From assembly GCA_035384565.1 (NCBI GenBank), contig DAOOIT010000011.1:51282-115281 (forward strand): 64,000 bases of DNA, given 5' to 3'. The first letter of the stretch is position 1; each line of letters begins with the position of its first letter. Below the pieces are notes generated by a model. The model did no database searches. It was not told the DNA's origin and saw only the letters and a list, made by a program, of their open reading frames with translations. The stretch comes from Planctomycetota bacterium (lineage in GTDB: Bacteria; Planctomycetota; PUPC01; DSUN01). Both the position numbers and the translations under genes were made by a program. Shown one piece after another: positions 1-24,415 of the stretch.

Positions 1-774
1 CTCAAGAACCCCAGCCTGCTGCTGCTGGACGAGGCGACCGCCAGCCTCGACGAGGCGTCCCAAGCGCGCGTCCTGGACATGATTCGAACGCGCCTCGGCC
101 GCAAGACCGTGATCTCAATCACCCACCGCCTCAGCGCCGCCCGCGAGAGCGATCGCATCGTGGTGATGGACCGCGGTCAGGTGGTGCAGCAGGGGAGCTA
201 CGACGAGCTGGCCCGTCAGGACGGCATGTTCCGCTGGCTGATGCAGCAGGAGCGAGGCGAGCGGACCGCGGATTCCCACCCGGTCGGCGCGGCAGCGGGC
301 GCCGCGGGCCTGCGCGAAGAGCTGCTCCGCAAGCTGGCCTTCTGCACGCTCTTCCACGGGCTCAAGAGCGCCCAGTTGGCCTCCCTTGCGCGCGAGATGC
401 AGATCGTCCAGTGCCCCAAGGATGCCGTGTTGTTCCGCCGCGGCGACCCGGGCCGCGACCTCTACGTGGTTCTCGACGGCCAGATCGAGTTCTTCGTCGA
501 GCGGGGCGCCGAGAAGGCGGCCGTGGTCGTGAACCGCACGGGCCCGGGCGGCGTGTTCGGCGAATTGGCGACGTTCGGCCAGGGGCGGCGCACCGTGGGC
601 GCCCGGGCGGCGGCCCAAGCCACGCTCGGCGTCCTGCGGCGCGACGCGCTCGTCAGGCTGCTCCACGCCGAGCCGGGCATCGCCCTCGAACTGCTCCGCA
701 TCGTGTCGAGCCACCTCGCGCGCACCGCCGACGCCGCGTACGGGGAGCCGGCATCCGCGCCTGGTGTGGCATAG
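1..774 (+). CDS. ABC transporter ATPase, C-terminal part (5' end outside window), fused to a C-terminal cyclic-nucleotide-binding (CAP_ED-type) domain
   Basis: Frame 1 is open from nt 1. LKNPSLLLLDEATASLD (Walker B/D-loop) and ISITHRLS (H-loop) are followed by FRRGDPGRDLYVVLDGQIEF...GVFGELATFGQGRRTVGARA, a cNMP-binding beta-roll/phosphate-binding-cassette pattern. Stop at 772-774. Confidence 0.85.
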   Translation, partial: LKNPSLLLLDEATASLDEASQARVLDMIRTRLGRKTVISITHRLSAARESDRIVVMDRGQVVQQGSYDELARQDGMFRWLMQQERGERTADSHPVGAAAGAAGLREELLRKLAFCTLFHGLKSAQLASLAREMQIVQCPKDAVLFRRGDPGRDLYVVLDGQIEFFVERGAEKAAVVVNRTGPGGVFGELATFGQGRRTVGARAAAQATLGVLRRDALVRLLHAEPGIALELLRIVSSHLARTADAAYGEPASAPGVA

Positions 775-807
775 GCAGACGCCATTGGCCCCAGGAGGGC
801 GAGACGA

Positions 808-1485
808 ATGGAAGCGCACAGCCGAGTCTTGCAGACGTACCTGGGCATCGCGCCGCGCACGAGCGAGGAGGCAGCGCTGCGGCTGCTGGTGGACCTCGGC
901 CGCCAATACGCCGACGCCGAAGAGGGCTCGCTGCTCGTGTTGGACCCCAGGACCAATGAGCTGGTCTTCGCCATGACGTCGGGCGACCGCCAGTCCGAGA
1001 AAACCCTCCTCGGCCAGCGGGTCCCCATGGGCCGCGGCCTGGTGGGGCTCGCGGTCGCCACGCGCGAGGTGCAAGCCGGGGCACCCACTTTCCGCGACCT
1101 CCGCCAGCGCAAACACCGGGGGGCCGCCGGGAGCCAGCCCACCGCCGTCCTGGCCGCGCCCATGCTCGTGCGCGAGGAGGTCATCGGCGTCCTCACCGCG
1201 GCAACCTTCCGCCCCGGCCGCCATTTCACACAGGCCCACGCGGCGTTCTACGGCAAGATCGCCGCGGTGGCGGGCCTCGTGGTGGACCAGCAGCAGCGCC
1301 TCGCCGCCGTCGAGCATCTCGACAAGGGCGGGCGGCTGCCCGCCGCCCGCACGCGCGAGCAGCGGCTGCAGGCCGAGATCGTCGCCCGCGTCGTTCGCCT
1401 CACCGCCGGGCGGCCCGAGCGCCTGGCCCGCGTGGCGGCGCTCCTGGCCGCCGTCGAGGCCCTCGGCCGGGGGCCGCAGCCATGA
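808..1485 (+). CDS. GAF domain protein (cassette 1)
   Basis: GGAGGG lies upstream of ATG 808. GAF-core pattern: GSLLVLDPRTNELVFAMTSG...GRGLVGLAVATREV...AVLAAPMLVREEVIGVLTAA. The stop overlaps the next start (ATGA at 1482-1485). Confidence 0.7.
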   Translation: MEAHSRVLQTYLGIAPRTSEEAALRLLVDLGRQYADAEEGSLLVLDPRTNELVFAMTSGDRQSEKTLLGQRVPMGRGLVGLAVATREVQAGAPTFRDLRQRKHRGAAGSQPTAVLAAPMLVREEVIGVLTAATFRPGRHFTQAHAAFYGKIAAVAGLVVDQQQRLAAVEHLDKGGRLPAARTREQRLQAEIVARVVRLTAGRPERLARVAALLAAVEALGRGPQP

Positions 1486-2273
1486 GCCGCATCCAGCGCG
1501 CCCTCCAAGACTCCTTCCGGCGACTTCGCCGTGCCCGCCTTCAGCCGGTTCAAGTCGCGGTCGTGGACAGCGGCGTTGACGCCACGCACCCCGCCCTGCG
1601 CGGGCGCGTGGCAGCGGCATGGCAGGTCATCCCGGGCGCGGACTCGCCCCGACTGGCCAGGGTCTCCCGCGCGCGGAACAACGACTCCTTCGGCCACGGC
1701 ACGGCGGTGGCGGGGATCATCGCGGCCATCGCGCCCAATGCCCGCCTGCTCGACATCCGCGTGCTGGACGAGCATTGCCAAGGGGGCGGGCAGGCGCTCC
1801 TGGCGGGCTTCGGGCAGGCCATGGCCGCGGGCGCCCGCCTCATCAACCTCAGCCTCGCCTGCGTCGCCGAATACGCCCCCCAGCTCCACGACCTGTGCGA
1901 GCGGGCCTATCGGCGAAACCAGATCGTCATCGCCGCCCGGCGCAACATGCCGCTCGCCGACAACGGCTTCCCCGCGGAATTCTCCTCATGCATCAGCGTG
2001 GACGTGATGGCCTCCCCGTCACCCTACGCCATCGCGTTCCTCGACCCGCCGCCCATCGAGTTCGCGGCGCGTGGCGAGAACGTCCGCGTTCTCGCCGCCG
2101 GCGGTGGCACCACGCATCAGACGGGCACGAGCTTCGCCACGCCGGCGGTCACAGGGCTGTGCGCCCTCCTCGTGGGCGCCTACCCCGACCTGAAGCTCTT
2201 TGAGCTCAAGACCTTGCTCAAGCATTTCGCTCGCCGCCCGGCCTGCGGCAGGGACAGGCATTCGGGTTCTTGA
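1482..2273 (+). CDS. Subtilisin-like serine peptidase (S8 family), short and intracellular-type (cassette 1)
   Basis: Catalytic motifs VAVVDSGVDATHPAL (Asp), HGTAVAGIIAA (His), AARRN (oxyanion Asn) and GTSFATPAVTG (Ser). Only 263 aa, with no signal peptide or prodomain. Confidence 0.85.
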   Translation: MSRIQRALQDSFRRLRRARLQPVQVAVVDSGVDATHPALRGRVAAAWQVIPGADSPRLARVSRARNNDSFGHGTAVAGIIAAIAPNARLLDIRVLDEHCQGGGQALLAGFGQAMAAGARLINLSLACVAEYAPQLHDLCERAYRRNQIVIAARRNMPLADNGFPAEFSSCISVDVMASPSPYAIAFLDPPPIEFAARGENVRVLAAGGGTTHQTGTSFATPAVTGLCALLVGAYPDLKLFELKTLLKHFARRPACGRDRHSGS

Positions 2274-2298
2274 CAGGGCGGATTGCGGCTGGTATACT
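2270..2298 (+). promoter_or_regulatory. Near-consensus sigma70-type promoter upstream of the precursor peptide gene
   Basis: TTGACA (2270-2275), a 17-nt spacer, then TATACT (2293-2298) preceded by TGg (extended -10). It stands out in GC-rich DNA and overlaps the TGA stop of the S8 gene. The implied 5' leader to ATG 2410 is about 105 nt. Confidence 0.5.
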
Positions 2299-2409
2299 TT
2301 GCGGAGCACGCGAGTGGCCGTCCACCCGGCAGGTCATCTGTGCAGAGGCGCTCCTCTTGGGCGGGGGGTGCCGTCCGGAGTCCTCAACCGAGACAGAGGA
2401 GGACGAACG

Positions 2410-2637
2410 ATGGGGAAGTTCGAGGATCCGCGGACGTTCCTGAAGAAGAAGCTGGGACCGGTCGGATTCAAGAAGTTCCAGGAGGGGATGCGCCTCGCCG
2501 CCGAGGGCAAAGGGGAGAAGAAGCCGAAGGCGGACGTCGAGGGACAGTCTGCTTCCTGCTATTCCTCCTGCGCGAGCTACTGCGACAGCAACAGCTTCCT
2601 GTCCTCCGGCGCCTACAGCAGGTTCAGCTTCGACTGA
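2410..2637 (+). CDS. Putative RiPP precursor peptide (75 aa)
   Basis: ATG 2410 is preceded by AGGAGGA. The N-half is Lys/Glu-rich and leader-like (MGKFEDPRTFLKKKLGPVGFKKFQEGMRLAAEGKGEKKPKADVEG). The tail is Cys/Ser/Tyr/Phe-rich (QSASCYSSCASYCDSNSFLSSGAYSRFSFD). The gene ends 9 nt before the rSAM gene. The longer track ORF (2200-2637) overlaps the S8 3' end and the promoter. Confidence 0.6.
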   Translation: MGKFEDPRTFLKKKLGPVGFKKFQEGMRLAAEGKGEKKPKADVEGQSASCYSSCASYCDSNSFLSSGAYSRFSFD

Positions 2638-2646
2638 TCGACGGCA

Positions 2647-4137
2647 ATGGACTTCGCGCCTGTGGCCGCTTCGCCTGATAACGTGGCGACGGGTGAGTCC
2701 GGCTCGAGCCGGCCGCTGTACAAAGTCTTCTCTACGGACTCCGGCCACTACCTTTACGATACGGCCACGAATCAGATCCTCACCGTGCCTGAGGACTTTG
2801 CGCGCCACCTCGCCGAGGGAGCCTTCTCGCAGGGCGAGCTCGACGAGATGGCCGCGGACCCCTGGGACGGCGTCCTCGTCCCCACCTCCGGCCTCCCTCT
2901 GACGCCGAGGCTGGACCGCGCCACCGTCGAGAGCGCGATCCAGGGCGAGTGCAAGCAGCTCATCCTGGAAGCGACCCGCGACTGCAATCTGCGCTGCAAG
3001 TACTGCCTCTACTCGGGCCGCCAGCCCGGCCGCCGCGGCACCTACGAGCAGCACATGGCCCCCGACACGGCGCGCAAGGCCGTGGACTATCTGGCGGCCC
3101 ACTCATCCCGCTGCCCCGAGGTCATTGTCGGCTTCTACGGCGGCGAGCCGCTCCTCAACCCCTCTCTCATGCGCGCCACCGCCGAATACGCCCGCCGAAC
3201 CATCACAGACAAGAAGCTCACCCTCACCCTCACCACGAACGGCACGCTGCTCAACCGCGAGACGATGGACTTTCTCGCCGCCAACGAGTTCTTCGTCTAC
3301 GTCAGCATGGACGGCCCGCGCGAGGCGAACGACCGGAACCGCGTCTTCGCCGGCTCGGGGGAAGGCACATCCGACCTCGTGGTGGCGCGGCTGCGCGAGT
3401 TCCAGCGGCTCTACCCCGACTACTGCCGCCGCTCCGTCGGCTTCTCGATGGTCATTGCGCCCGGGGCGGATCTCGCGCGCATGGCCGAATGGGCCGGCGA
3501 ATGGGACCTCGCCCTTGCCACCGTGACCCGCGCCTCGGACGACACGGGAGAACTCGAGGAAGCCTTTCGAGCGCAGCCCGTGACCGGCTACGAACAGCTC
3601 AAGGCCCAGTACATCGAGGCGGCTCGCACCGGCACGTTGCCGCAGCGGCGCGGGCGCATCGGCTTCGCCCTCCACACCGCCCTGTTCTCCATCGGGCTCT
3701 CCACCCTGCGCAAGCGGGCCGTGCCCACATCGCCTCACGACCGCGCTATCCGCCGAGGCATCTGCATCCCCAGCAAACAGCGGCTCTTCGTGGACTGCAA
3801 CGGCGACCTCTTCCCGTGCGAGAAGACGGACGGCTTCCGCCACCTCCACCTCGGCCACGTGGACACTGGGGTGGACGCCCGGAGGGCCTATGACATCATT
3901 GTCGGGTTCCACGAGTTCCTCGCCGAGGAGTGCGCCTCGTGCTGGCTCTGGCGGCTGTGTCCCGTCTGCTTCGTGGGGGCGACCGTGGGGAATGCCTACG
4001 CGCGCGACAAGGCGCGGCGGGTCTGCGAGATGCATCGCCGCGAGATGGCCGACACGCTGAAGACCTACTGCACCATCCTCGAGCACGATCCGGGCGCGCT
4101 CGATTGCTTCCTTGACTCGCAGGCGGATTTGGTGTAG
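2647..4137 (+). CDS. Radical SAM / SPASM-domain peptide maturase
   Basis: CX3CX2C motif at C113/C117/C120 (DCNLRCKYCLYSG), FYGGEPLLN, and a C-terminal SPASM-type Cys cluster (CIPSKQRLFVDCNGDLFPCEK ... CASCWLWRLCPVCF). Confidence 0.9.
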   Translation: MDFAPVAASPDNVATGESGSSRPLYKVFSTDSGHYLYDTATNQILTVPEDFARHLAEGAFSQGELDEMAADPWDGVLVPTSGLPLTPRLDRATVESAIQGECKQLILEATRDCNLRCKYCLYSGRQPGRRGTYEQHMAPDTARKAVDYLAAHSSRCPEVIVGFYGGEPLLNPSLMRATAEYARRTITDKKLTLTLTTNGTLLNRETMDFLAANEFFVYVSMDGPREANDRNRVFAGSGEGTSDLVVARLREFQRLYPDYCRRSVGFSMVIAPGADLARMAEWAGEWDLALATVTRASDDTGELEEAFRAQPVTGYEQLKAQYIEAARTGTLPQRRGRIGFALHTALFSIGLSTLRKRAVPTSPHDRAIRRGICIPSKQRLFVDCNGDLFPCEKTDGFRHLHLGHVDTGVDARRAYDIIVGFHEFLAEECASCWLWRLCPVCFVGATVGNAYARDKARRVCEMHRREMADTLKTYCTILEHDPGALDCFLDSQADLV

Positions 4138-4149
4138 AAACCCCGTGTC

Positions 4150-4704
4150 GTGCGTCGGTGGCTTCTCCCTGGACGCTATGGGGGTTTCCGAATGGCCTCG
4201 CCTCCTGAAGCCGGCGCCCGCCTCGGGGCTGCGCAACCGGCGCTTGACCGCGCCGCCTGCCAGCGCGGCCGGCTCGGCCGGCTGTTGCGCCGCCTCCTCG
4301 CGGAGGCCGTCGCGTCGTGCCGGGCCACCGAAGGTACCCTCTGGGTCCCCTCCCCCACTGGCGCGGCACTCGAGGGAGCGCTCAACCACGGCCAAACGCC
4401 CGACATTCTGGAGGCCGCCTCCGTGCCCGTGGCCGACAGCGTAATCGGCCTCGTCTTCTGCACGGGCGCCGCGGCCTGCATCGGCCCGGACGACCCTCAC
4501 AACCCGAGTGTGGACGAGCAAACCGGCCTCCCCACCCGCGCGATGGCCGCAGCCCCCGTTCGCATCGGGTCCGATACGGTGGCCGTGCTCTCGGTGATCA
4601 ACCCGGCGGGCGGCGGCGTCTTCTCGCGCGCCGACCTCGAGGCCCTCGAGTGGAAGGCGTATCTCGCGGCCCTGGTGATCGAGGACGCACACGATGAGCC
4701 CTGA
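4150..4704 (+). CDS. GAF domain protein (cassette 2)
   Basis: GAF-like core: EGTLWVPSPTGAALEGALNHGQ...ADSVIGLVFCTGAAACIG...MAAAPVRIGSDTVAVLSVIN. GTG 4150 is the first start; ATG 4192 (MASPPEAG) is an alternative. The 3' end overlaps the next gene by 11 nt. Confidence 0.6.
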   Translation: MRRWLLPGRYGGFRMASPPEAGARLGAAQPALDRAACQRGRLGRLLRRLLAEAVASCRATEGTLWVPSPTGAALEGALNHGQTPDILEAASVPVADSVIGLVFCTGAAACIGPDDPHNPSVDEQTGLPTRAMAAAPVRIGSDTVAVLSVINPAGGGVFSRADLEALEWKAYLAALVIEDAHDEP

Positions 4705-5464
4705 GCCCGTGGCCATAGACGCGGCCCGCCTCGCAGCCGCCACCGGCAGCGGCGTGCGGGTGCTGCTGGTAGACTCGGGCGTGGAGGTGAGCCACCCGGC
4801 GTTGCAGGGCGTGAGAATCCCCTGCTGGGGCGTGCGGCTGGCGGAGGGCGCGACGCCGTGCGTCGTCGAGGACAGCGGCGGCGACGCGGCCGGCCATGGC
4901 ACCGCCGTGGCCTGGCTGCTGCACCAGCACGCGCCCGAGGCCGAGCTTCACAGCCTGCGGGCCATCGGACCCAGCCTCCACGGCTCGTCGGCCCTCCTCC
5001 TCGCCGGCCTGCGGTGGGGCGTCCGGCAGGGCTACGACATCCTCGTCTGCAGCTTCGGCACAGCCTGCGAGGATTTTCTGCGCGACTACAAGCGGTTGGT
5101 GGACCAGGCCTTCTGCCGCAACGTGTGGCTTGTCGCCGCGTCGGGCAACGTGGACTTCTGCGCGGCGGAGTACCCCGCGCACTTCCCCACCGTGCTTTCG
5201 ACCGATTTCGCAGCGCTGCACGGTCTGGCCCTACAGCGGCGGCGGGGAACCCTCGTGGAGTTCGTGGCGAACGGGGAGGGCCTCCATGTGCCGTGGCGGG
5301 GAGGAGGCTACCGCACGGTATCGGGGTGCAGCTTCGCCGCGCCCCATCTCGCCGCCCTTGCGGCCAGGGTGCGCCAGGCCCATCCCGCCTGGAACGCCTG
5401 CCAGGCCAAAGCCGCCCTCTACGCGCTCGCGGAAGAGGCCCCTCGCGAGGCCCTGCGCACCTGA
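4694..5464 (+). CDS. Subtilisin-like serine peptidase (S8 family), short and intracellular-type (cassette 2)
   Basis: VLLVDSGVEVSHPAL (Asp), GHGTAVAWLL (His), VAASGN (oxyanion Asn) and SGCSFAAPHLAAL (Ser). 256 aa, no signal peptide or prodomain. Clear paralogue of 1482-2273. Confidence 0.8.
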   Translation: MSPEPVAIDAARLAAATGSGVRVLLVDSGVEVSHPALQGVRIPCWGVRLAEGATPCVVEDSGGDAAGHGTAVAWLLHQHAPEAELHSLRAIGPSLHGSSALLLAGLRWGVRQGYDILVCSFGTACEDFLRDYKRLVDQAFCRNVWLVAASGNVDFCAAEYPAHFPTVLSTDFAALHGLALQRRRGTLVEFVANGEGLHVPWRGGGYRTVSGCSFAAPHLAALAARVRQAHPAWNACQAKAALYALAEEAPREALRT

Positions 5465-5548
5465 GAGTGCCCAAGCGTGTCTCTGCGCACCCTGCGCGTG
5501 TCGGCCGCGTCGAGTGGGCGAGCGGATGGGCGGATGGCAATCACCCGC

Positions 5549-7780
5549 TCACCCATCCCTTTCGGTGGCGGCCCCCCGCCGCCTCAGCAAGTCCTTCAGC
5601 CACGCCGGGCAACCCGGGCCGCTGAGGAACTCCCGAGTATAGGCGTATCCGGCCTCCGCGATCTCGTCCATGGCCTCGAACTCGAGGATTCCATACCGTT
5701 CGACGGGCGGGCGCAGGCAGAGGTCGGCGTCGCGTTGGACCTCCTCGGCCTTGTGGTCGCTGCCGATGACCAGCGTGCGGATGAGGACGTCGAAGATGCC
5801 GGGGATGCGCCGGGCTCCCCTCTTCCGCCGCCGCAGGCGGTCCCAGAGCAGGCGCCAGGGCGAGGGGAACTCCTCGCCTTCGACGGCCATCTCCACGGGA
5901 GGGCTGACGCTGACCGCGATGACCCGTTCGCAACCGGCGCGGCGGAGCAGATCGCCGGGGAGGTTGTTCAACACCCCACCATCCACCAGGAGGTGGCCAT
6001 TCTGAATGGCCGGCGGAAAGACGCCGGGCAGGGATGCGCTGGCCCGCACGGCCTTCCAGACGCGGCCGCGCCGGTGGACCTCCAGGTCGGCCGTCGTCAG
6101 GTTGCACGAGACGCAGAGGAAGGGGAGCCAGAGGTCCTCGATGCGGGCCTCGCCGTACACCGTGGGCAGCAGGCGGTCGAGCCTCCGGCCGCGGAGGAGC
6201 GAGAGGATCGGCAGCGTGTACTCCTTGTGCGGCCTGCCCTGGATGAACACGTGGCGGCCCCGGGAGAGCTCGGTCGCGTAGTCCATCTCCATCGCGAGTG
6301 CCGCACCAACGACGGCTCCCATGCTGGCTCCCGCCACGCGGTCAATGGGCGCGCCGGCCTCGAGGAGGGCGCGGATGACGCCCAGGTGCGCCAGCCCGCG
6401 CGCCCCGCCGCCCCCGAGCACCAGGCCCACCGCCCGCCCGGCAAGGCACCGAGCCAGCCGGGCCGCGTCGTCCTCTCGACCCTCGCGGATATGGTAGTGC
6501 TCGGCCGGCGCCAGGGCTTCCAGCCAGGCGCCGATTCCCGAAGGAAGGCTAGCATCGTTCGGGTGCACGAGGACGAGGTTAAGCGGCTTGGCGGTTTCGG
6601 GTCTCGCGTTGGGGGTTCCGAGGCTCAGTCCGCAATCCGCAATCCGCAATCCACAATCCCCGAGAGCGGGGCCTGCGACCAAGATGACCTGATCGGCCTC
6701 CCGGATGCAGCGACGAGTCCAGGCTGAACCCGCCGCGTCGGCTTGGAGGATGAGGAACCTATGCCGGGTCTCCTGCTCGTCGAGCCAGGCGGTGAGCCAG
6801 CCGCCGCGCGGGGTGCCGGGTTCGACTTCGGCGGCGCCGCGCAGGCCGGTGAGGCGGTCCAGCGTGTCGCGCGACAGGTGGAGCGTGGACCCGAGGCGTG
6901 CGAGCGCCGCGGCGAGCCGGGCCGCCACCTCGTCCAGCGGCACGTCCGGGCCGGCAGGAACGAGTGCGAACGACATCGCCCTCTGGCGGGCCGGCTCGGA
7001 GCGCTCGCGGGCGCGGAGGCGTTGGGCCAGCACCCGCGCCAGCCCAGCGACGATCTCGGGGTGCCGGGCGCGGACCGCCTCGAATGCCTCGGGCGGGAGG
7101 CGGGCCAGCACGCTGTCGCGCAAGGCGCGCACCTCGCCCGTGCGCGGCTCGCCCGTGAGGAGCGCCATCTCGCCCACGCTCTCGCCGGGGGTGACCTCGG
7201 AATGAGGAGTGGAGAGCCCCTTCCGCCCCCCACACTGCGCACTACGCACTTGCAGGCGTCCGCTCAACAGAATGTAGAGGCTGCGGTCCGCCTCCCCTTC
7301 CCGCACAAGCACCTCGCCGCCGGCCAGCGACACCCAGTCCACGCGCCCCTCGATCTCCTCGAGTGCGGCGCGCCCGAGCGGCCCGAGCAAACGGGCCAAC
7401 GCCACGGCTAGCTGGCTGCGGCGAAGGCGTTCGCGGACCAGCTCCGCCAGGCGTTCCGCGATCGCGGGCGCGGTCTCGAGGAGGGCTTCGACCTCGGCGG
7501 CGCCCAGGCGCAGGAGCCGGCTGTTCTCCACGGCCGTGACGGATGCCGTGCGGGTGCCGGCGGTGAGCGCGCCCAGCTCTCCGACGATTTCTCCCGCCCG
7601 GAGGTCGCCGAGCGTCAGGCCCTCCTGAGTCACGCGGAGGCGCCCCTCCACGATGAGGAACAGGGCGTCGGCCGGGTCGCCCTGGCGGAAGAGCGGCTCC
7701 CCCGCGGCCAGCCGCGCTTCGGCGAGTCGGTTGCCGAATCGCTCTCGAAGCAGCGGCTCGGGGTCTTCGTGCCCGGTCAT
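5549..7780 (-). CDS. Protein with two cNMP-binding domains and a patatin-like phospholipase domain (NTE-like architecture)
   Basis: ATG 7780 overlaps the upstream stop (ATGA 7777-7780). Two CAP_ED domains: LFRQGDPADALFLIVEGRLRV...GEIVGELGALTAGTRTASV and LVREGEADRSLYILLSGRLQV...GESVGEMALLTGEPRTGEV. Patatin motifs: LVLGGGGARGLAHLGV, GASMGA (GXSXG) and LLVDGGVLNNLP (DGG). Confidence 0.9.
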   Translation of the reverse strand: MTGHEDPEPLLRERFGNRLAEARLAAGEPLFRQGDPADALFLIVEGRLRVTQEGLTLGDLRAGEIVGELGALTAGTRTASVTAVENSRLLRLGAAEVEALLETAPAIAERLAELVRERLRRSQLAVALARLLGPLGRAALEEIEGRVDWVSLAGGEVLVREGEADRSLYILLSGRLQVRSAQCGGRKGLSTPHSEVTPGESVGEMALLTGEPRTGEVRALRDSVLARLPPEAFEAVRARHPEIVAGLARVLAQRLRARERSEPARQRAMSFALVPAGPDVPLDEVAARLAAALARLGSTLHLSRDTLDRLTGLRGAAEVEPGTPRGGWLTAWLDEQETRHRFLILQADAAGSAWTRRCIREADQVILVAGPALGDCGLRIADCGLSLGTPNARPETAKPLNLVLVHPNDASLPSGIGAWLEALAPAEHYHIREGREDDAARLARCLAGRAVGLVLGGGGARGLAHLGVIRALLEAGAPIDRVAGASMGAVVGAALAMEMDYATELSRGRHVFIQGRPHKEYTLPILSLLRGRRLDRLLPTVYGEARIEDLWLPFLCVSCNLTTADLEVHRRGRVWKAVRASASLPGVFPPAIQNGHLLVDGGVLNNLPGDLLRRAGCERVIAVSVSPPVEMAVEGEEFPSPWRLLWDRLRRRKRGARRIPGIFDVLIRTLVIGSDHKAEEVQRDADLCLRPPVERYGILEFEAMDEIAEAGYAYTREFLSGPGCPAWLKDLLRRRGAATERDG
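6629..6659. repeat. Heptanucleotide tandem repeat inside the patatin-gene linker
   Basis: TCCGCAA x3 plus TCCACAA plus TCC on the + strand. In the gene it is translated as GDCGLRIADCGLS, between the cNMP and patatin domains. Confidence 0.8.
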
Positions 7781-10700
7781 CGGTGGAGGGCCTCCTGCCA
7801 ACGGCGGTACTGATCGACGCGCCAGGCCTCGAACCGCTCGCGCCAGGGGACAGCCGCGTCGCCCGGATAGGCCCCCGACCACCACGGCCTCGCGCGCCAG
7901 AGACGCGCCGTGCCGTCCTCGCCTCCGGTGACAATCGTCAGCCCGTCGCCGCTGAAGAGGACGTGAGTGACCGGTTTCGCATGCCCCTCCAGCACGGCCA
8001 GTTCGCGACCCGAGGCCGTGTCCCACAACCGCACCGCCGCGCCGTCCGCGGTCGCCACACGGGAGCCATCCGGGCTCAGGGCAGCTCCCGTCGGCGTGCC
8101 GTTCCTGCCCCGGAACGTGTGGAGCGGCGAGACAGAGGCAACGTCCCACAGCCGTGCCTCGAGGCTGCCCGAGCTGGTGACGGTGGTGATGAGGACACGC
8201 TGGGCGTCGGGGGTGAACTGGGCGTGCCAGGGGGAGTCGCCTTTCTCGCCCCGCAGCACGGCGATGGTCGCGCCCGAGCGGGTGTCCCACACGCGGGCCG
8301 TGCCGTCGGCCGCGGTCGTGGCCAGGCGGGCGCCGTCGGCGCTGAATGTGGCGTCGTGCAGCCCACGCTCGTGGCCCGCCATCGTGGCCTGGAGCTTGCC
8401 CGAACGGGCGTCCCACACCTTTGCCGTGTGATCGCTCGACGCCGAGGCGACCTGTGTGCCGTCGGGGCTGAACACCGCGTCCCAAACGATGTCCGTGTGG
8501 CCCACGAGGTCGGCCAGCATCTTGCCGGTGGCGGCGTCCCACACTTTGGCCGTCCGGTCGCTGGAGGCGGTGACGACCCGCGTCCGATCGGGGCTGAAGC
8601 GGGCACGGCGCACGGTCTGGCCGTGCCGTATCTCCACGCTCTGCGAACACGCCTCGGCAAGTTCGCTGACAAACACAGTGCTCGTGCCACTGAGGATGGC
8701 AACGCTATGGCCATCGGAAACGAGATCAATGCCACCGATAGAACCCTGGCCATGGCGGCACGGCAGGCTGGCAGCGCGAGCCGTATCCCACGCGCTGAAC
8801 CTCCCACCGGCAACCACGACTAGCCTCGCACCATCACGGCTGACCGCCACGTCCTGTAGCGCCTCGCCGCCCGACTGCACGAAGACCTGCCGGTCAAGGT
8901 GGAAGACGAGCGGAGCGGGCCGCTCGCGCGATGACGGCTCCGCGATCTCCCAGAGCTTGGTCGCGCCGTCGGCCGACGACGTGGCGAAACACGGTGCGCC
9001 GGGCGCAAACGCTGCCGCGTGCACCGGGCCGCTGTGGCCCGAAACCGTGAACAAGAGAGCGCCGCTGGCGGCTTCCATGCACGCAACTCCCCCTGCGACG
9101 GCGGCAAGAATCTGCTTGCCTTCGGGGCCGACCGCGAGGGGAAGGCCGAGGAACGTGCGCAAGTGCTGTCCTCTCTCGGCACTCCAGATACTGCCCGTGG
9201 CAACCTCGCCGGCTTGCGCAGTGAGGAACTGCATGCCCTCCCCCAGGAAGGCAACGAGGGTTGGGGTGCCCGGGCAGGACACTTCGCAGACAGGCTTGCC
9301 CGTCGCCACGTCCCACACCCGAGCTGTGCGGTCAGGCGCTGTGGGCACGGCCTCGGCGCCCCGCGGCGAAGGGCGAGAGGCGAGCCAGGCATCCCAGGGC
9401 CGCGCGGTACGCTGGCCGGGGGCGGTGGCGAGGCGGCGACCCTGGCTGTCGAATGCCACACACACGACTGGCGCCGCATGGGCGGCCTGCGACCAGAGGA
9501 GCGTGCCCGCCTGCGTGTCCCAGACCTCCACCGTGCCATCCTCGGCGCCGGTGGCGACGCGGGAGCCGTCGGGACTGAAGACCGCTGTGGTCAGGCCCAC
9601 CTTGTCGAGCCAACGGATGGCGTCCTCGACCGTGGCGAAGCGGCGCGCCGCCGCCTCGCGCCGCGCGCGGCCGCAGAGCGTGCGGAGCGCGGCGCCCGAG
9701 CGGGTGTCCCAGAGCTTCGCCGTGCCATCGAAGCCGGCGGTGAGCACCAGGCCGCCCTTCGCGGCGCAGTGCGCGGAGACCACGTTGCGCGTGAGCTCCA
9801 GAGCGGCCAGGAGCGTGCCCATCGCCTCGCGGGGCGCAGGGGCGAACTCGCTCATCGGACCGCCCTCGGGCCGCAGGGCGAACGGCTTCTCCTTCAGCGA
9901 CTGCATCATGTCCCATGTCGTGCGCTTGGCCCAGGCGTCGGCGAGGGCGGCGGAGAGTTCTGGCGCCCCGGGCGGGCCGATGGCGAGAGCCGGGCAGTGG
10001 CCGCTCAGAACGGCGAGCGGCTTCCCCGTGCCGGCCTCCCACAGGCGCGCCGTGCCATCGTAGGAGGAGGTGAGGATGCGCTGTCCGTCGGGGCTGAACT
10101 CGGCGCCGTTCAGCCAGGCCGCGTGGCCGTCCAGCACGGCCGCGGTGCGGCCGCTGCGGGTGTGCCACACATAAGCCTTCCCGTCGTCGCAAGCGGCCAC
10201 GATGTGAGATCCGTCGGGGCTGAAGGCGACGCTCTGGAGGGGTTGGCCGCTGCCGCGCAGCGTGCCGAGGTCGGTGGAGCAACGGGCGAGGAGGTGGCCC
10301 CATTCCCAGTTTCGCAGGGCCTCGGGCGCGCCCCAGAGGGCGTCGCGGGCCTGATCATAGCGCTGCTGCTCGATCTGCCGCGTGGCGAGGAGGACGTTCG
10401 AGAAGTAGAGTTCGGCCTCTGTGCGGCGGCGGGCGGCGACCGCGTCGTCGCGCTCGCGCTGGGCAACGGCCGCGTGGTGGCGGGCGATGCGGCGCTGGAC
10501 GAACGCGTAGGCGCCCAGGACAGCCAGGACGATGGCCGCGACGGCGGCGACGCTGGAGATGGCCGCGAGGCGCTGGATGCGGCGCCGCTGGGCCTCGCGG
10601 TCCCGCTGAAGCTGGCGCTCGCGGAGCCGCTCGTCGTGACTGCGGAGCGCGCGGGACAGCTCGGCGGCCCGCGGCCAGCGGGCGGCGGGGTCGGTCGCGA

Positions 10701-12273
10701 TGCAGCGGGCAATGTCCTCGCGAAGCACCTCGCTGCCCACTTGGCGCTCCCAGTCGCCCAGCGTGCGCTCGAGGTCGCCGCACACGATCTGGTAGAGCGT
10801 CACACCAAGGCTGTAGAGGTCGCTCTGGGGGGACGGGGACGCGCCGCGGCGGAGTTCAGGGGCCAGGTAGTCCCACGTGCCGGCCACGCCTTCGATGCGG
10901 GTGCTGGTGAGGCTCTTCAGGACATCGTCGTCGGCCGCCGCGCCGAGGCCGAAATCGGTCAGTTTGGCCACGAGCACGCCATCCTCGCGCCGGGCGAGGA
11001 GGAGGTTCGACGGCTTGATGTCGCGGTGGAAGATGCCGGCCGCGTGGACGGTGTCGAGGGCGTCGGCGATTTGAGCGACGATCTCGAGGCGTTCGGCCAG
11101 GGGCGGGTTCCCGGCCAGCCAGCCGGCGAGCGACGGCCCTTCGACGTACTCCATTTCGAGGTAGTAGGGGGGCCGGTCGCCCTCGGTGATGTCGTAGACC
11201 TCGACGAGGTTCGGATGGTGGTAACGGTGGAGGCGCTTGAGCAGGCGGGCCTCGCGCTTGAGGGCCTGGAGGCGTTCGCGCTTGAAGCAGAACTTGAAGA
11301 CCTGGCGCGACTTGTCGGCGGGGTTCCACGCCTTCCACACTTCGCCGAAGGCGCCGCGGTACCGCACTGCGGAGTGGAGAGTGCGGAGTGCGGATTGGGA
11401 AGGAGTTCCTGCCTGGGCTGCCTCTTCATTCCGCACTCCGGACTCCCCACTCCGCACTACCTCCTCGCGCCCGAGGCGTTCCTCGAGCACCCAGCTCGTG
11501 CCAGGGACGGTGACCCCGACAGCGGGCCGCCAGCCCAGCTCCTCGTCGGCCTGCTCGGCTGGCCAGCCTTTGGCCGTGGCCGCAGGGGCCGCGAGGGGCG
11601 CGTGCGTTCGCTCGCCGATTTCGCAGACCTCGTAGCGATCCTCGACGCCCTTGAAGCGATAGGGGCCGTGGTTGCACCAGGCCACGGGGTCGAGGCCCGC
11701 CAGGTCGTCGCGGCAGAGGATGGCCCGAGCGTCGTCGAAGACTGCCCGGGTGCAGAGAATCTGCCCGCCACGGGCCAGGTCCGCGATGCGGGCGGCGGTC
11801 GAGATCTGGAGGCCGTAGATGTCCAACCGCTTCGGGCCGTCGTCGTGGCGCTCCACCACGACCTGTCCCTGGTGAATCCCCACGCGCACCTGCGGCAGGT
11901 CCGGCTCGTCCCCGCGAGCGGCTCGCATGGCCGCCTGCATGTGCAGGGCGAACTTCACCGCCTCCGAGGGGGTCGCGAACACGACCAGGAAGGAGTCGCC
12001 GGCCGTCTCCACCTCCTGGCCATCCACACCGCTGAGCGCCCGGCGGAAGATCTCCCTGTGGATGCGCACCAGGGCCGCGGCACGGACGTTGCCCAGCGTG
12101 CTCTGCTGCCGCGTGGAGCCCTCCAGGTCGCTCAGCAGAATCGTGAGCACCTGCGTGGCGTGGGCGATGCGGAAGCGCTCCATCTGCTCGCGCGAGGCGG
12201 CCGTCAGCCCCACCGAGTCCGGAGCGCCGGCCATCTGTTGTGCATCAGGGGAATCCGCCGAGGCCATGCTCAC
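7777..12273 (-). CDS. Multidomain signalling protein: class III nucleotidyl cyclase, Ser/Thr protein kinase, TM helix, WD40 repeats
   Basis: Cyclase motifs: LLSDLEGST, VETAGDSFLVVF, RVGIHQGQVV, ISTAARI. Hanks kinase motifs: RGAFGEVWKA, HRDIKPSNLLL, DFGL, APE. TM helix: LAAISSVAAVAAIVLAVLGAYAFV. More than 850 aa of WD40-type repeats follow (SPDG..., DGTA.LWD/VWD). The first start is GTG 12273; ATG 12267 is an alternative. Confidence 0.9.
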   Translation of the reverse strand: MSMASADSPDAQQMAGAPDSVGLTAASREQMERFRIAHATQVLTILLSDLEGSTRQQSTLGNVRAAALVRIHREIFRRALSGVDGQEVETAGDSFLVVFATPSEAVKFALHMQAAMRAARGDEPDLPQVRVGIHQGQVVVERHDDGPKRLDIYGLQISTAARIADLARGGQILCTRAVFDDARAILCRDDLAGLDPVAWCNHGPYRFKGVEDRYEVCEIGERTHAPLAAPAATAKGWPAEQADEELGWRPAVGVTVPGTSWVLEERLGREEVVRSGESGVRNEEAAQAGTPSQSALRTLHSAVRYRGAFGEVWKAWNPADKSRQVFKFCFKRERLQALKREARLLKRLHRYHHPNLVEVYDITEGDRPPYYLEMEYVEGPSLAGWLAGNPPLAERLEIVAQIADALDTVHAAGIFHRDIKPSNLLLARREDGVLVAKLTDFGLGAAADDDVLKSLTSTRIEGVAGTWDYLAPELRRGASPSPQSDLYSLGVTLYQIVCGDLERTLGDWERQVGSEVLREDIARCIATDPAARWPRAAELSRALRSHDERLRERQLQRDREAQRRRIQRLAAISSVAAVAAIVLAVLGAYAFVQRRIARHHAAVAQRERDDAVAARRRTEAELYFSNVLLATRQIEQQRYDQARDALWGAPEALRNWEWGHLLARCSTDLGTLRGSGQPLQSVAFSPDGSHIVAACDDGKAYVWHTRSGRTAAVLDGHAAWLNGAEFSPDGQRILTSSYDGTARLWEAGTGKPLAVLSGHCPALAIGPPGAPELSAALADAWAKRTTWDMMQSLKEKPFALRPEGGPMSEFAPAPREAMGTLLAALELTRNVVSAHCAAKGGLVLTAGFDGTAKLWDTRSGAALRTLCGRARREAAARRFATVEDAIRWLDKVGLTTAVFSPDGSRVATGAEDGTVEVWDTQAGTLLWSQAAHAAPVVCVAFDSQGRRLATAPGQRTARPWDAWLASRPSPRGAEAVPTAPDRTARVWDVATGKPVCEVSCPGTPTLVAFLGEGMQFLTAQAGEVATGSIWSAERGQHLRTFLGLPLAVGPEGKQILAAVAGGVACMEAASGALLFTVSGHSGPVHAAAFAPGAPCFATSSADGATKLWEIAEPSSRERPAPLVFHLDRQVFVQSGGEALQDVAVSRDGARLVVVAGGRFSAWDTARAASLPCRHGQGSIGGIDLVSDGHSVAILSGTSTVFVSELAEACSQSVEIRHGQTVRRARFSPDRTRVVTASSDRTAKVWDAATGKMLADLVGHTDIVWDAVFSPDGTQVASASSDHTAKVWDARSGKLQATMAGHERGLHDATFSADGARLATTAADGTARVWDTRSGATIAVLRGEKGDSPWHAQFTPDAQRVLITTVTSSGSLEARLWDVASVSPLHTFRGRNGTPTGAALSPDGSRVATADGAAVRLWDTASGRELAVLEGHAKPVTHVLFSGDGLTIVTGGEDGTARLWRARPWWSGAYPGDAAVPWRERFEAWRVDQYRRWQEALHR
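11356..11466. repeat. 111-nt palindromic (MITE/REP-like) element inserted in frame in the kinase Gly-rich loop
   Basis: Inverted arms are built from GCGGAGTG/GCGGATTG units: GTAGTGCGGAGTGGGGAGTCCGGAGTGCGGAATG ... CAATCCGCACTCCGCACTCTCCACTCCGCAGTGCGGTAC on the coding strand. It encodes EEVVRSGESGVRNEEAAQAGTPSQSALRTLHSAVRYR (aa 270-306). Confidence 0.7.
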
Positions 12274-12671
12274 GATGCGGGCGAGGCCCGCCCTCCGAAG
12301 TGCGCCTGCTCCCCCTCTCGCGCTCCTTCTTACCTCTTTTTCGATGGCGCGTCAACCCCTCCTCCCTTCTTGGAGTGCGCCACCCTCGTGTAGCAGCGGC
12401 GAGGGCATAGGGTCAGGAAAACCCGTCCGGCGAGGCGGAAACACGGGTTGTCCCGGCGGCGGGTGGCCGCCCTGCTCAGCGGGCGGAGAGGAATGGTGAA
12501 CATCGGCTGACGACTTCGAGGGGCCGTTCCGTTCCCGCCCTGGTGTACGGGGACGTAATCAAGCTCGTCGAGCGCGGGAAGGCCGTGGCCGTGGAGCTGG
12601 TGGTGGAAGCGTTCGGCGTGGGGTGTGGGCCGGAGTTGTAGGTGGCTGCGGGAGCTCCGAAGGAGCGAAAT

Positions 12672-12812
12672 GGGATAGCCCAGGGCAACGCCCTGGGAAC
12701 CAGACCGCCCCGTGGCAGCCCTGAAAGGGCGGAATAGAGAGCTTCTATCTCGCCCCTTCAGGGCTGGACCCGTGAATCCCACTGAACCCAGGGCGTTGCC
12801 CTGGGCTATCCC
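12672..12812. repeat. Nested palindromic intergenic element (about 141 nt)
   Basis: Outer arms: GGGATAGCCCAGGGCAACGCCCTGGG / CCCAGGGCGTTGCCCTGGGCTATCCC. Inner arms: CAGCCCTGAAAGGGCGG...CGCCCCTTCAGGGCTG. It lies between the divergent genes 7777-12273 and 12957-14705. Confidence 0.75.
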
Positions 12813-24338: not shown

Positions 24339-24415
24339 GCGCCTGTAGCTCAGTGGATCAGAGCGCTAGCCTCCGGAGCTAGAAGTCGCAGGTTCGAATC
24401 CTGCCAGGCGTACCA
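24339..24415 (+). tRNA. tRNA-Arg(CCG): tRNA-Arg, anticodon CCG, CCA encoded
   Basis: Cloverleaf folded by hand. Acceptor GCGCCTG/CAGGCGT; D arm GCTC-AGTGGATCA-GAGC; anticodon arm CTAGC-CTCCGGA-GCTAG (CCG at positions 34-36); T arm GCAGG-TTCGAAT-CCTGC; discriminator A plus CCA. Confidence 0.9.

Follow-up and report, generated by a model that had tools for sequence, protein, structure and literature searches.

What does a bacterium make, and how does it release the product, when one string of genes combines a short cysteine-containing peptide, a radical SAM enzyme, two pairs of GAF and subtilase proteins and an exporter with a cyclic nucleotide monophosphate (cNMP)-binding domain? The question is raised by positions 1 to 5464 of the stretch analyzed here, a window of 64,000 nt with a G+C content of ~70% from a lineage of Planctomycetota represented by metagenome-assembled genomes (MAGs). 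We consider it probable that the seven genes, all on the plus strand, form a locus for a ribosomally synthesized and posttranslationally modified peptide (RiPP) in which a GAF protein (GAF1), a subtilase (S8_1) and an ATP-binding cassette (ABC) exporter make up a module for leader removal and export that is gated by cNMP. A check of the window recovered all open reading frames (ORFs) listed in a preliminary description of the sequence, with matching coordinates and with domain calls in agreement with Pfam, and the identical maturase with the same gene string was present on at least 13 metagenome contigs. The features of the cluster are as follows:

1–774, plus strand: 3′ end of the ABC exporter gene, encoding the C-terminal half of the ATPase and a cNMP-binding domain at nt ~406–666 (Pfam cNMP_binding, 60 bits)
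808–1485, plus strand: GAF1, 225 aa, a stand-alone GAF domain followed by a C-terminal extension of three helices (Pfam GAF_2, 47 bits)
1482–2273, plus strand: S8_1, a 263-aa subtilase without prodomain or signal peptide (Pfam Peptidase_S8, 84 bits)
2270–2298, plus strand: sigma-70-like promoter TTGACA-17-TATACT ahead of the precursor gene
2398–2403, plus strand: Shine–Dalgarno sequence GGAGGA upstream of the precursor ORF
2410–2637, plus strand: precursor gene, 75 aa, a conserved ORF directly upstream of the maturase gene
2410–2547 and 2548–2634, plus strand: leader ending in V-E-G-Q (2536–2547) and 29-aa core SASCYSSCASYCDSNSFLSSGAYSRFSFD
2647–4137, plus strand: radical SAM/SPASM maturase, 496 aa (Pfam Radical_SAM, 63 bits)
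~2710–2946, 2983–3006 and 3763–4026, plus strand: RRE-like (RiPP recognition element) domain, CX3CX2C motif and SPASM cysteines of the maturase, from alignment and model
4192–4704, plus strand: GAF2, 170 aa, a diverged GAF protein that lacks the C-terminal helices (Pfam GAF, 36 bits)
4694–5464, plus strand: S8_2, a 256-aa subtilase, likewise lacking prodomain and signal peptide (Pfam Peptidase_S8, 69 bits)

Is the 75-aa ORF a gene, and is it the substrate of the enzyme beside it? The neighborhood could be coincidental, the small ORF being no substrate and the maturase acting on a nonpeptide or on a protein encoded elsewhere, and such a reading can point to an ORF that matches no family in Pfam or NCBIfam and to a maturase without a curated equivalog. 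Against it stand the substitution pattern and the gene order. The G+C content at third codon positions is 0.88, as in the neighboring genes, and in comparison with the homologous locus L008 (L numbers denote loci or contigs fetched from genome and metagenome collections, P numbers database proteins) we counted 17 synonymous and 8 nonsynonymous codon changes, with third positions holding 21 of the 32 differences; because the composition is that of the neighbors and the substitutions are biased to third positions, the ORF is a true gene under purifying selection. An ORF of 72–85 aa was found directly upstream of the maturase in L007, L008, L010, L012, L014 and L015, which are all the loci of the maturase clade that could be read, and this adjacency holds across 52–84% maturase identity. 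The preliminary description had left room for homologous loci without the small ORF and for an enzyme grouping with the anaerobic sulfatase maturases; the ORF was kept in every clade locus examined, and the sulfatase maturase model scored 85 bits against the maturase, compared with 296 bits for the CcpM profile. With its invariant cysteines added, we regard a coincidental neighborhood as very improbable, and the initial reading of the cluster as a RiPP locus gains support, with a precursor upstream of every clade maturase examined and peptide maturases as the nearest relatives of the enzyme.

An alignment of eight peptides from loci of the maturase clade showed L11, K14, L15, G16, F23, V43, G45, Q46, C50, C54, C58 and G67 to be invariant. 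Within the core, the three cysteines, spaced C-x3-C-x3-C, and G67 are the only invariant side chains, and the leader ends in the equally invariant junction V43-x-G45-Q46. The proposal that the ORF is a leader-bearing precursor was thus upheld by coding-type substitutions and by the conservation of leader, junction and cysteines. The near-consensus promoter ahead of it also withstood scrutiny, being the sole sigma-70-like match in positions 1–6000, where 0.2 would be expected, and having both hexamers kept in L008, L007 and L010, with a drifting spacer. In L007, two tandem precursor genes (7307–7513 and 7642–7866) with differing cores, TPICDATCSSRCQGNNFLSAGSY... and SASCYAPCASYCDSNSFLSAGAY..., precede a single maturase gene, an arrangement seen also in L049.

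What does the maturase do to this peptide? The CNLRCKYC motif supplies C113, C117 and C120, and the arrangement of C373, C391, C429, C432, C438, C441 and C460 fits a SPASM domain; all ten cluster-ligand cysteines were invariant among 25 homologues, which confirms the radical SAM/SPASM assignment first made from the window. The best NCBIfam profile was CcpM, which matched over the full length including the N-terminal domain (296 bits, cut-off 500), followed by RumMC, Nif11-type, PapB and QhpD, the last of these again a full-length match (158 bits, cut-off 453). CteB (5WGG) was the nearest solved structure both by sequence and by fold, and an AlphaFold model of the maturase, with a predicted local distance difference test (pLDDT) score of 85.5, aligned with it full-length. 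Residues 1–104 have no Pfam match; in the model, residues 25–47 form three strands and residues 49–100 helices (pLDDT 66–94), an order like that in the RRE of CteB. The modeled enzyme consists of a predicted N-terminal RRE-like domain (residues ~25–100, three strands and three helices), a radical SAM core and a SPASM domain with seven cysteines. The lack of a separate PqqD/RRE gene, listed earlier as a peculiarity of the locus, is real in that no stand-alone gene is present, but it is ordinary, since an RRE-like domain is predicted to be fused to the maturase. The maturase clade comprises ~16 clusters at 52–100% identity, and its named members, together with two from the genome collections, are Planctomycetota; the next homologues are at most 36% identical and mostly named CcpM, and identity to named CcpM proteins is 27–30%. 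One database protein of 477 aa (P0018) aligns at 62% identity with the C-terminal 47% of the maturase and has a Pfam Peptidase_S8 match as well; it represents either a fusion that exists in nature or two genes merged in annotation.

By analogy, the most likely activity would be the joining of C50, C54 and C58 by up to three thioethers to the C-terminal half of the core, giving a sactipeptide- or ranthipeptide-like hairpin. With its C-x3-C-x3-C spacing and ~29 aa, the core is similar to thuricin CD alpha and beta, which are hairpin sactipeptides. The core is also rich in Tyr, Phe and Ser, and the processing module could be as we propose while the maturase forms an aromatic C–C or C–O cyclophane or performs epimerization on these residues, the cysteines forming disulfides or binding metal after export. 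The cyclophane SPASM enzymes YhhB, FxsB and DynA are among the weaker profile matches of the maturase, and other loci with the GAF–subtilase pair employ YydG-like epimerases or B12-dependent radical SAM enzymes. The aromatic positions of the core vary among family members, however, and the three cysteines do not. Furthermore, the top five profiles are all annotated as peptide maturases, among them those for RumMC (sactipeptide), PapB (ranthipeptide) and QhpD, and score two to four times as high as the cyclophane families, and CteB, the nearest structure, is reported for thioether-bond formation. We consider nonthioether chemistry unlikely and retain thioether formation as the preferred reading.

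What, then, removes the leader? The start codon of S8_1 overlaps the stop codon of GAF1 (ATGA), and both the ORFs and Pfam bear out the earlier description of a GAF protein overlapping a prodomain-less S8 peptidase. The catalytic triad, D29, H72 and the Ser of G-T/C-S-F-A, is present in S8_1, in S8_2 and in the family, and the QhpE model (NF049966, cut-off 165) gives 103.6 bits for S8_1 and 79 bits for S8_2. The pairing with a GAF protein had been singled out as unusual, and it proved both real and far more general than one window could reveal. In the GAF1 model (pLDDT 83.8), the GAF domain is followed by three C-terminal helices; the family has a length of ~220 aa and 40 invariant columns in 20 sequences 48–79% identical to GAF1, and it spans phyla, far more widely than the maturase clade. 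An exhaustive GAF1 profile search gave 200 representatives at E ≤1e-30, and the best 150 of the 200 were mostly single stretches of ~200–250 aa, the rest being fragments or large multi-GAF proteins. Our census of the cassette covered 91 nonredundant GAF1 loci, 74 of them with at least 500 nt downstream and 25 flanked by at least 5 kb in either direction (long loci). In 70 of the 74 loci the next gene was of S8_1 type, in the same orientation and no more than 400 nt away, often overlapping or a few bases apart; the hosts include Planctomycetota, Polyangiaceae and other Myxococcota, Methylomirabilota (NC10), Verrucomicrobiota, Alphaproteobacteria and Desulfovibrio. Among the 25 long loci, an ABC gene was present in 21 and a radical SAM gene in 8, the latter of varying type (PapB-like, TIGR04463-like, YydG-like and B12-dependent).

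The pair matched no curated NCBIfam, Pfam-specific or PADLOC family, and a literature search, with subscription journals outside its reach, returned no paper on the V-x-G-Q motif or on GAF–subtilase pairing. Two assignments were tried for the cassette and rejected. Some GAF1 homologues carry the JGI name free methionine-R-sulfoxide reductase, and the invariant and near-invariant columns of the family contain no cysteine; for a role in antiphage defense, PADLOC gave no GAF match, only a generic 'subtilase' model for S8, and IetS models of at most 27 bits. A peculiar arrangement was seen in the Planctomycetota MAG PPR_0503, where the cluster lies in two parts on one 5.97-Mb scaffold (L008 and L018): the ABC gene and GAF1 residues 1–219 at ~1.6 Mb, the remainder of GAF1 together with S8_1, the precursor and the maturase at ~5.03 Mb. 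The break inside the 3′ end of GAF1 is either a scaffolding artifact or a genuine rearrangement.

Which peptides accompany the cassette? The small ORFs of the cassette loci are mutually unrelated save for V-E-G-Q (rarely V-Q/S/V/T-G-Q) ahead of a short and usually Cys-rich C terminus. Translated in six frames (~1 million aa), these loci contained V[EQ]GQ 32 times, 26 of them in short ORFs with a leader-like N terminus, 12–43 aa before the stop; the window has exactly one. At least seven unrelated small-peptide families carry V-x-G-Q, some with differing radical SAM enzymes and some without any:

Family A: SxSCx3Cx3C... after the junction; this window
Family B: GCGFAAIGGVRG and relatives after the junction; NC10 and Verrucomicrobia, with two radical SAM genes
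Family C: a ~39-aa zinc-ribbon-like unit, CPWCG...CGxCG; Myxococcota, Alphaproteobacteria and Acidobacteriota, often in two copies, with no radical SAM gene
Family D: FNENHCCVDV... after the junction; YydG-like and SPASM enzymes
Family E: AVYGGCEPCIAWTDI after the junction; radical SAM gene in the same locus (L119)
Family F: RSYGWENK after the junction, which is VSGQ
Family G: WGDHGWER after the junction, which is VVGQ; B12-dependent radical SAM enzyme

Further V-x-G-Q families came from metagenome loci and from a locus with a CHASE2–GAF fusion (...PEVVGQWGDHGWER), and none of five representatives of families B, C and D reached an NCBIfam cut-off. A relaxed motif scan of the cassette loci without V[EQ]GQ made one clear addition, VSGQ in L025. 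We also ran the test in reverse, scanning 596 Gb with a DNA pattern for VEGQ-x8-CPWCG. This gave 14 stretches, all true family C genes and one of them from the cultured strain Acidisphaera rubrifaciens HS-AP3; ABC, GAF and S8 genes follow in 5 of the 5 stretches long enough downstream, and in two more the ABC gene alone precedes the end. Two loci hold larger relatives of these peptides. In L043, a 158-aa protein (6569–7045), encoded immediately ahead of two regular precursor genes of family C, has an anti-sigma-factor-like zf-HC2 N terminus and a family C unit after V-V-G-Q, which hints at a link of these peptides to sigma-factor signaling. In L014, a 129-aa Cys-rich ORF (10521–10910) directly after S8 contains D-V-T-G-Q and then CxxC-rich sequence, and is a possible additional and larger substrate for the cassette there.

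S8 is the sole protease shared across the cassette loci, a Pfam scan of the window cluster found no protease besides the S8 proteins, the ABC protein has no C39 peptidase domain, and the motif stands at the leader–core boundary. For these reasons, the most economical reading of the sequences is that GAF–S8 is a leader peptidase that would cut after Gln, with ABC export following. The protease could instead serve in regulation or quality control, for instance by degrading a regulator or precursor that escaped processing, or in immunity, and V-x-G-Q would then be recognized by the ABC exporter or by a protease encoded elsewhere. A sensory role is typical of GAF domains, Ser/Thr kinases and cyclases occur near cassettes, an M16 peptidase gene lies near one locus, and the zf-HC2 fusion joins one V-V-G-Q peptide to an anti-sigma-like domain; in some members, moreover, the GAF module is the output of a membrane sensor. 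Two members of the GAF1 family are fused behind CHASE2, with the S8 gene directly next in both: L140 (1473–8420) encodes the CHASE2–GAF protein, S8, a 76-aa peptide, a B12-binding radical SAM enzyme and an ABC exporter, and on the P0295 contig an extracytoplasmic sensor domain stands ahead of the GAF1-type module and the S8 gene follows. Scans of the genome collections with the two fusion proteins returned no match. A leader peptidase under regulation could nonetheless have a sensory GAF partner, in unrelated families the motif falls precisely on the leader–core boundary, and in the related QhpD system a small cytoplasmic subtilase, QhpE, cuts the leader off thioether-cross-linked QhpC, which the ABC protein QhpF then exports (PMC7876137). 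We judge a purely regulatory protease to be decidedly unlikely. Because the fusions keep the S8 gene immediately downstream, they point to a role for GAF1 as a regulatory or adaptor subunit through which a signal reaches the protease, and not as a plain chaperone, and we keep GAF–S8 as the candidate leader peptidase.

How would the freed peptide leave the cell? On full contigs the ABC gene is the first of the cluster, with a divergent dihydrodipicolinate synthase gene upstream of it. The full protein (L001–L006) has 888 aa with ABC_membrane (from residue 36), ABC_tran and cNMP_binding domains and is without a C39 domain by Pfam. It remains under every NCBIfam cut-off, TIGR03796 and TIGR03797 giving 195 and 209 bits against 853 and 709. 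The gene occupies 5462–8128 of L001, and an insertion of ~120 aa interrupts the ATPase domain between the Walker A half (371–477) and the signature half (~600–690), being longer still in the L045 homologue. The partial ATPase with a C-terminal cNMP domain described from the window was correctly called, its 60 bits exceeding the Pfam cut-off. The domain had further been presented as unrecognized on such exporters; it is real and conserved, but HetC and TIGR03896 provide partial precedents. In seven fused or stand-alone cNMP homologues, aligned with a CRP sequence, the phosphate-binding G-E ... R-T residues are kept, and cyclase genes adjoin the cassette in the window, in L044 and in L045. Since these residues are retained and cyclase genes lie adjacent, gating of export by cyclic AMP or GMP (cAMP or cGMP) is plausible. 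The two genes that follow the peptide cluster in the window are:

5549–7780, minus strand: patatin-like phospholipase with two cNMP_binding domains, NTE_Ploop and Patatin (Pfam), convergent on the peptide cluster
7777–12234, minus strand: adenylate/guanylate cyclase–Ser/Thr kinase–WD40 protein of 1485 aa (Guanylate_cyc, Pkinase and WD40)

The phospholipase gene overlaps the end of the cyclase–kinase–WD40 gene by 4 nt, and by their domains the two look like a pair of a cyclase and a cNMP-activated lipase. The cyclase–kinase–WD40 protein is a candidate source of the cNMP signal, and the phospholipase is possibly a member of the same circuit as the exporter. In L015, a homologue of the cyclase–kinase gene is adjacent, its N-terminal cyclase part lost at the contig end. 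Counting the exporter, three cNMP-related genes lie within 12 kb. An Acido-Lenti-1 RNA motif of Rfam occurs at 12653–12697 on the minus strand, ~400 nt upstream of the start of the cyclase–kinase–WD40 gene (44 bits, gathering threshold 37), and the sole tRNA gene of the window, for tRNA-Arg (CCG), is at 24339–24415 on the plus strand.

Where does the second GAF–S8 pair belong? The preliminary description placed the second GAF gene at 4150–4704; the GAF assignment and the overlap with the S8 gene stand, but the start is most likely 4192, as called on six contigs and in keeping with homologues of 156–170 aa. The second S8 peptidase was found as described, at 69 bits and with its triad intact. 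GAF2 shares 25% identity with the GAF1 profile, and S8_2 shares 32% with S8_1; the GAF2 family is narrow, with 11 clusters that are all at least 61% identical, and in the loci that were read the pair is confined to the lineage of the window and to L007/L049. The pair looks like a lineage-specific, diverged duplicate of the cassette.

From the observed gene content, conservation, motif, co-occurrence and domain integrity, we propose the following course of events. The precursor would be transcribed from its own promoter, and its leader would be bound by the RRE-like domain of the maturase, which would then introduce the cross-links. S8_1, with the translationally coupled GAF1, would cut after V-E-G-Q in the cytoplasm, and the ABC exporter would pump the peptide out once the leader is removed. 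The C-terminal cNMP domain of the exporter would gate this step through cAMP or cGMP from the neighboring cyclase–kinase–WD40 sensor. GAF1, S8_1 and the ABC protein, with or without cNMP, would serve many V-x-G-Q precursor families as a processing and export module independent of peptide class.

Several observations weigh against this scheme or parts of it. The cross-link type in the product is a guess by analogy, since the maturase falls below every curated NCBIfam cut-off and we found no characterized CcpM product in the literature. Among the long cassette loci, 11 of 25 had a cNMP domain, either fused or encoded by a gene of its own (~150 aa), and 10 of 25 an adenylate/guanylate cyclase domain, and cNMP gating is for this reason not universal. 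The N-terminal cNMP-type domain of HetC from Nostoc, which lies beside C39, binds guanosine tetraphosphate (ppGpp) in vitro and not a cyclic nucleotide (PMC10986499), and this counts against gating by cNMP. Foldseek searches with the GAF1 model returned GAF domains only, of generic kinds (cAMP-, heme- and bilin-binding, PtsP, fRMsr) and with no hint of a ligand, and the GAF1 profile gave weak matches in PDB to cNMP-binding GAFs only. Motif scans found no V-x-G-Q peptide within ~10 kb in ~10 of the 25 long loci, and L012, within the maturase clade, has precursor and maturase with no cassette within 10 kb. Finally, the scheme leaves the role of GAF2–S8_2 unexplained.

The RiPP locus itself is recognizable, and the module of V-x-G-Q, GAF–S8 and (cNMP-)ABC is the part that matches nothing we found. 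Tentatively, and with slightly less than even confidence, we suggest that GAF–S8 and the ABC protein, with cNMP fused or separate, constitute an undescribed, class-independent system of maturation and export, a counterpart of the double-glycine system with its peptidase-containing ABC transporters (PCATs), under second-messenger or sensor control. If so, its substrates would belong to at least seven unrelated families, spread over at least six phyla, and would include both radical SAM-modified peptides and unmodified zinc-ribbon-like miniproteins. V-x-G-Q with GAF–S8 would then offer a new class-independent handle for RiPP mining, similar to the RRE or the double-glycine/PCAT signature, applicable to such poorly explored phyla as Planctomycetota, Verrucomicrobiota, Methylomirabilota, Myxococcota and acidophilic Alphaproteobacteria; the search has already yielded several precursor families without an NCBIfam model. 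Coupling of peptide processing and export to cyclic-nucleotide signaling would be rare and bears on the question of whether such peptides are signals or weapons, as second-messenger control of leader removal and export would favor signaling peptides over constitutive antibiotics. A cytoplasmic subtilase specific for V-E-G-Q could also serve as a tool for leader removal.

How does the cluster compare with known systems? Membership in the CcpM, SCIFF, PapB, QhpD/E, PCAT and NHLP-exporter groups was considered and rejected, either scores falling under the cut-offs or a defining domain being absent. The CcpM/CLI_3235 system (TIGR04068, with TIGR04065, TIGR04066 and TIGR04069) resembles the cluster in its maturase, the best full-length profile, and in combining a Cys-rich precursor with an ABC protein and a subtilase, which Firmicute CcpM clusters also hold (PMC10731318). 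It differs in that our maturase scores 296 against the cut-off of 500, the precursor lies outside the CLI_3235 family, and none of the seven products matches TIGR04066 or TIGR04069; the named CcpM proteins themselves, the only part of that system scanned, contain no Pfam GAF or cNMP domain. CteB/SCIFF, PapB and RumMC share with the maturase the radical SAM and seven-Cys SPASM domains, probably also the N-terminal RRE and, by analogy, Cys thioether chemistry, whereas the cluster stays below their cut-offs and has another precursor family, host phylum (Planctomycetota) and processing module.

The QhpC/D/E/F system is similar in its radical SAM thioether former, its prodomain-less cytoplasmic subtilase for leader removal and its ABC exporter (PMC7876137), and both S8 proteins match the QhpE model and the maturase the full length of QhpD, all below cut-offs. 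Unlike that system, which matures quinohemoprotein amine dehydrogenase, the cluster has no qhpA, qhpB or qhpG, its product would be a free peptide, and its subtilase has a GAF partner that QhpE lacks. HetC and the 'bacteriocin-type transport-associated protein' TIGR03896 of the nitrile hydratase leader peptide (NHLP)/Nif11 systems likewise place a cNMP-type domain on or beside a peptide exporter; in contrast to HetC, the domain is here C-terminal or encoded by a small separate gene, the G-E/R-T cassette is kept and class III cyclase genes co-occur. In its logic the module comes close to the PCATs, where one protease–exporter unit handles many unrelated precursors with double-glycine leaders by means of a short motif at the leader end, but it employs a separate S8 protease with a GAF partner instead of a fused C39 domain, and V-x-G-Q instead of G-G.

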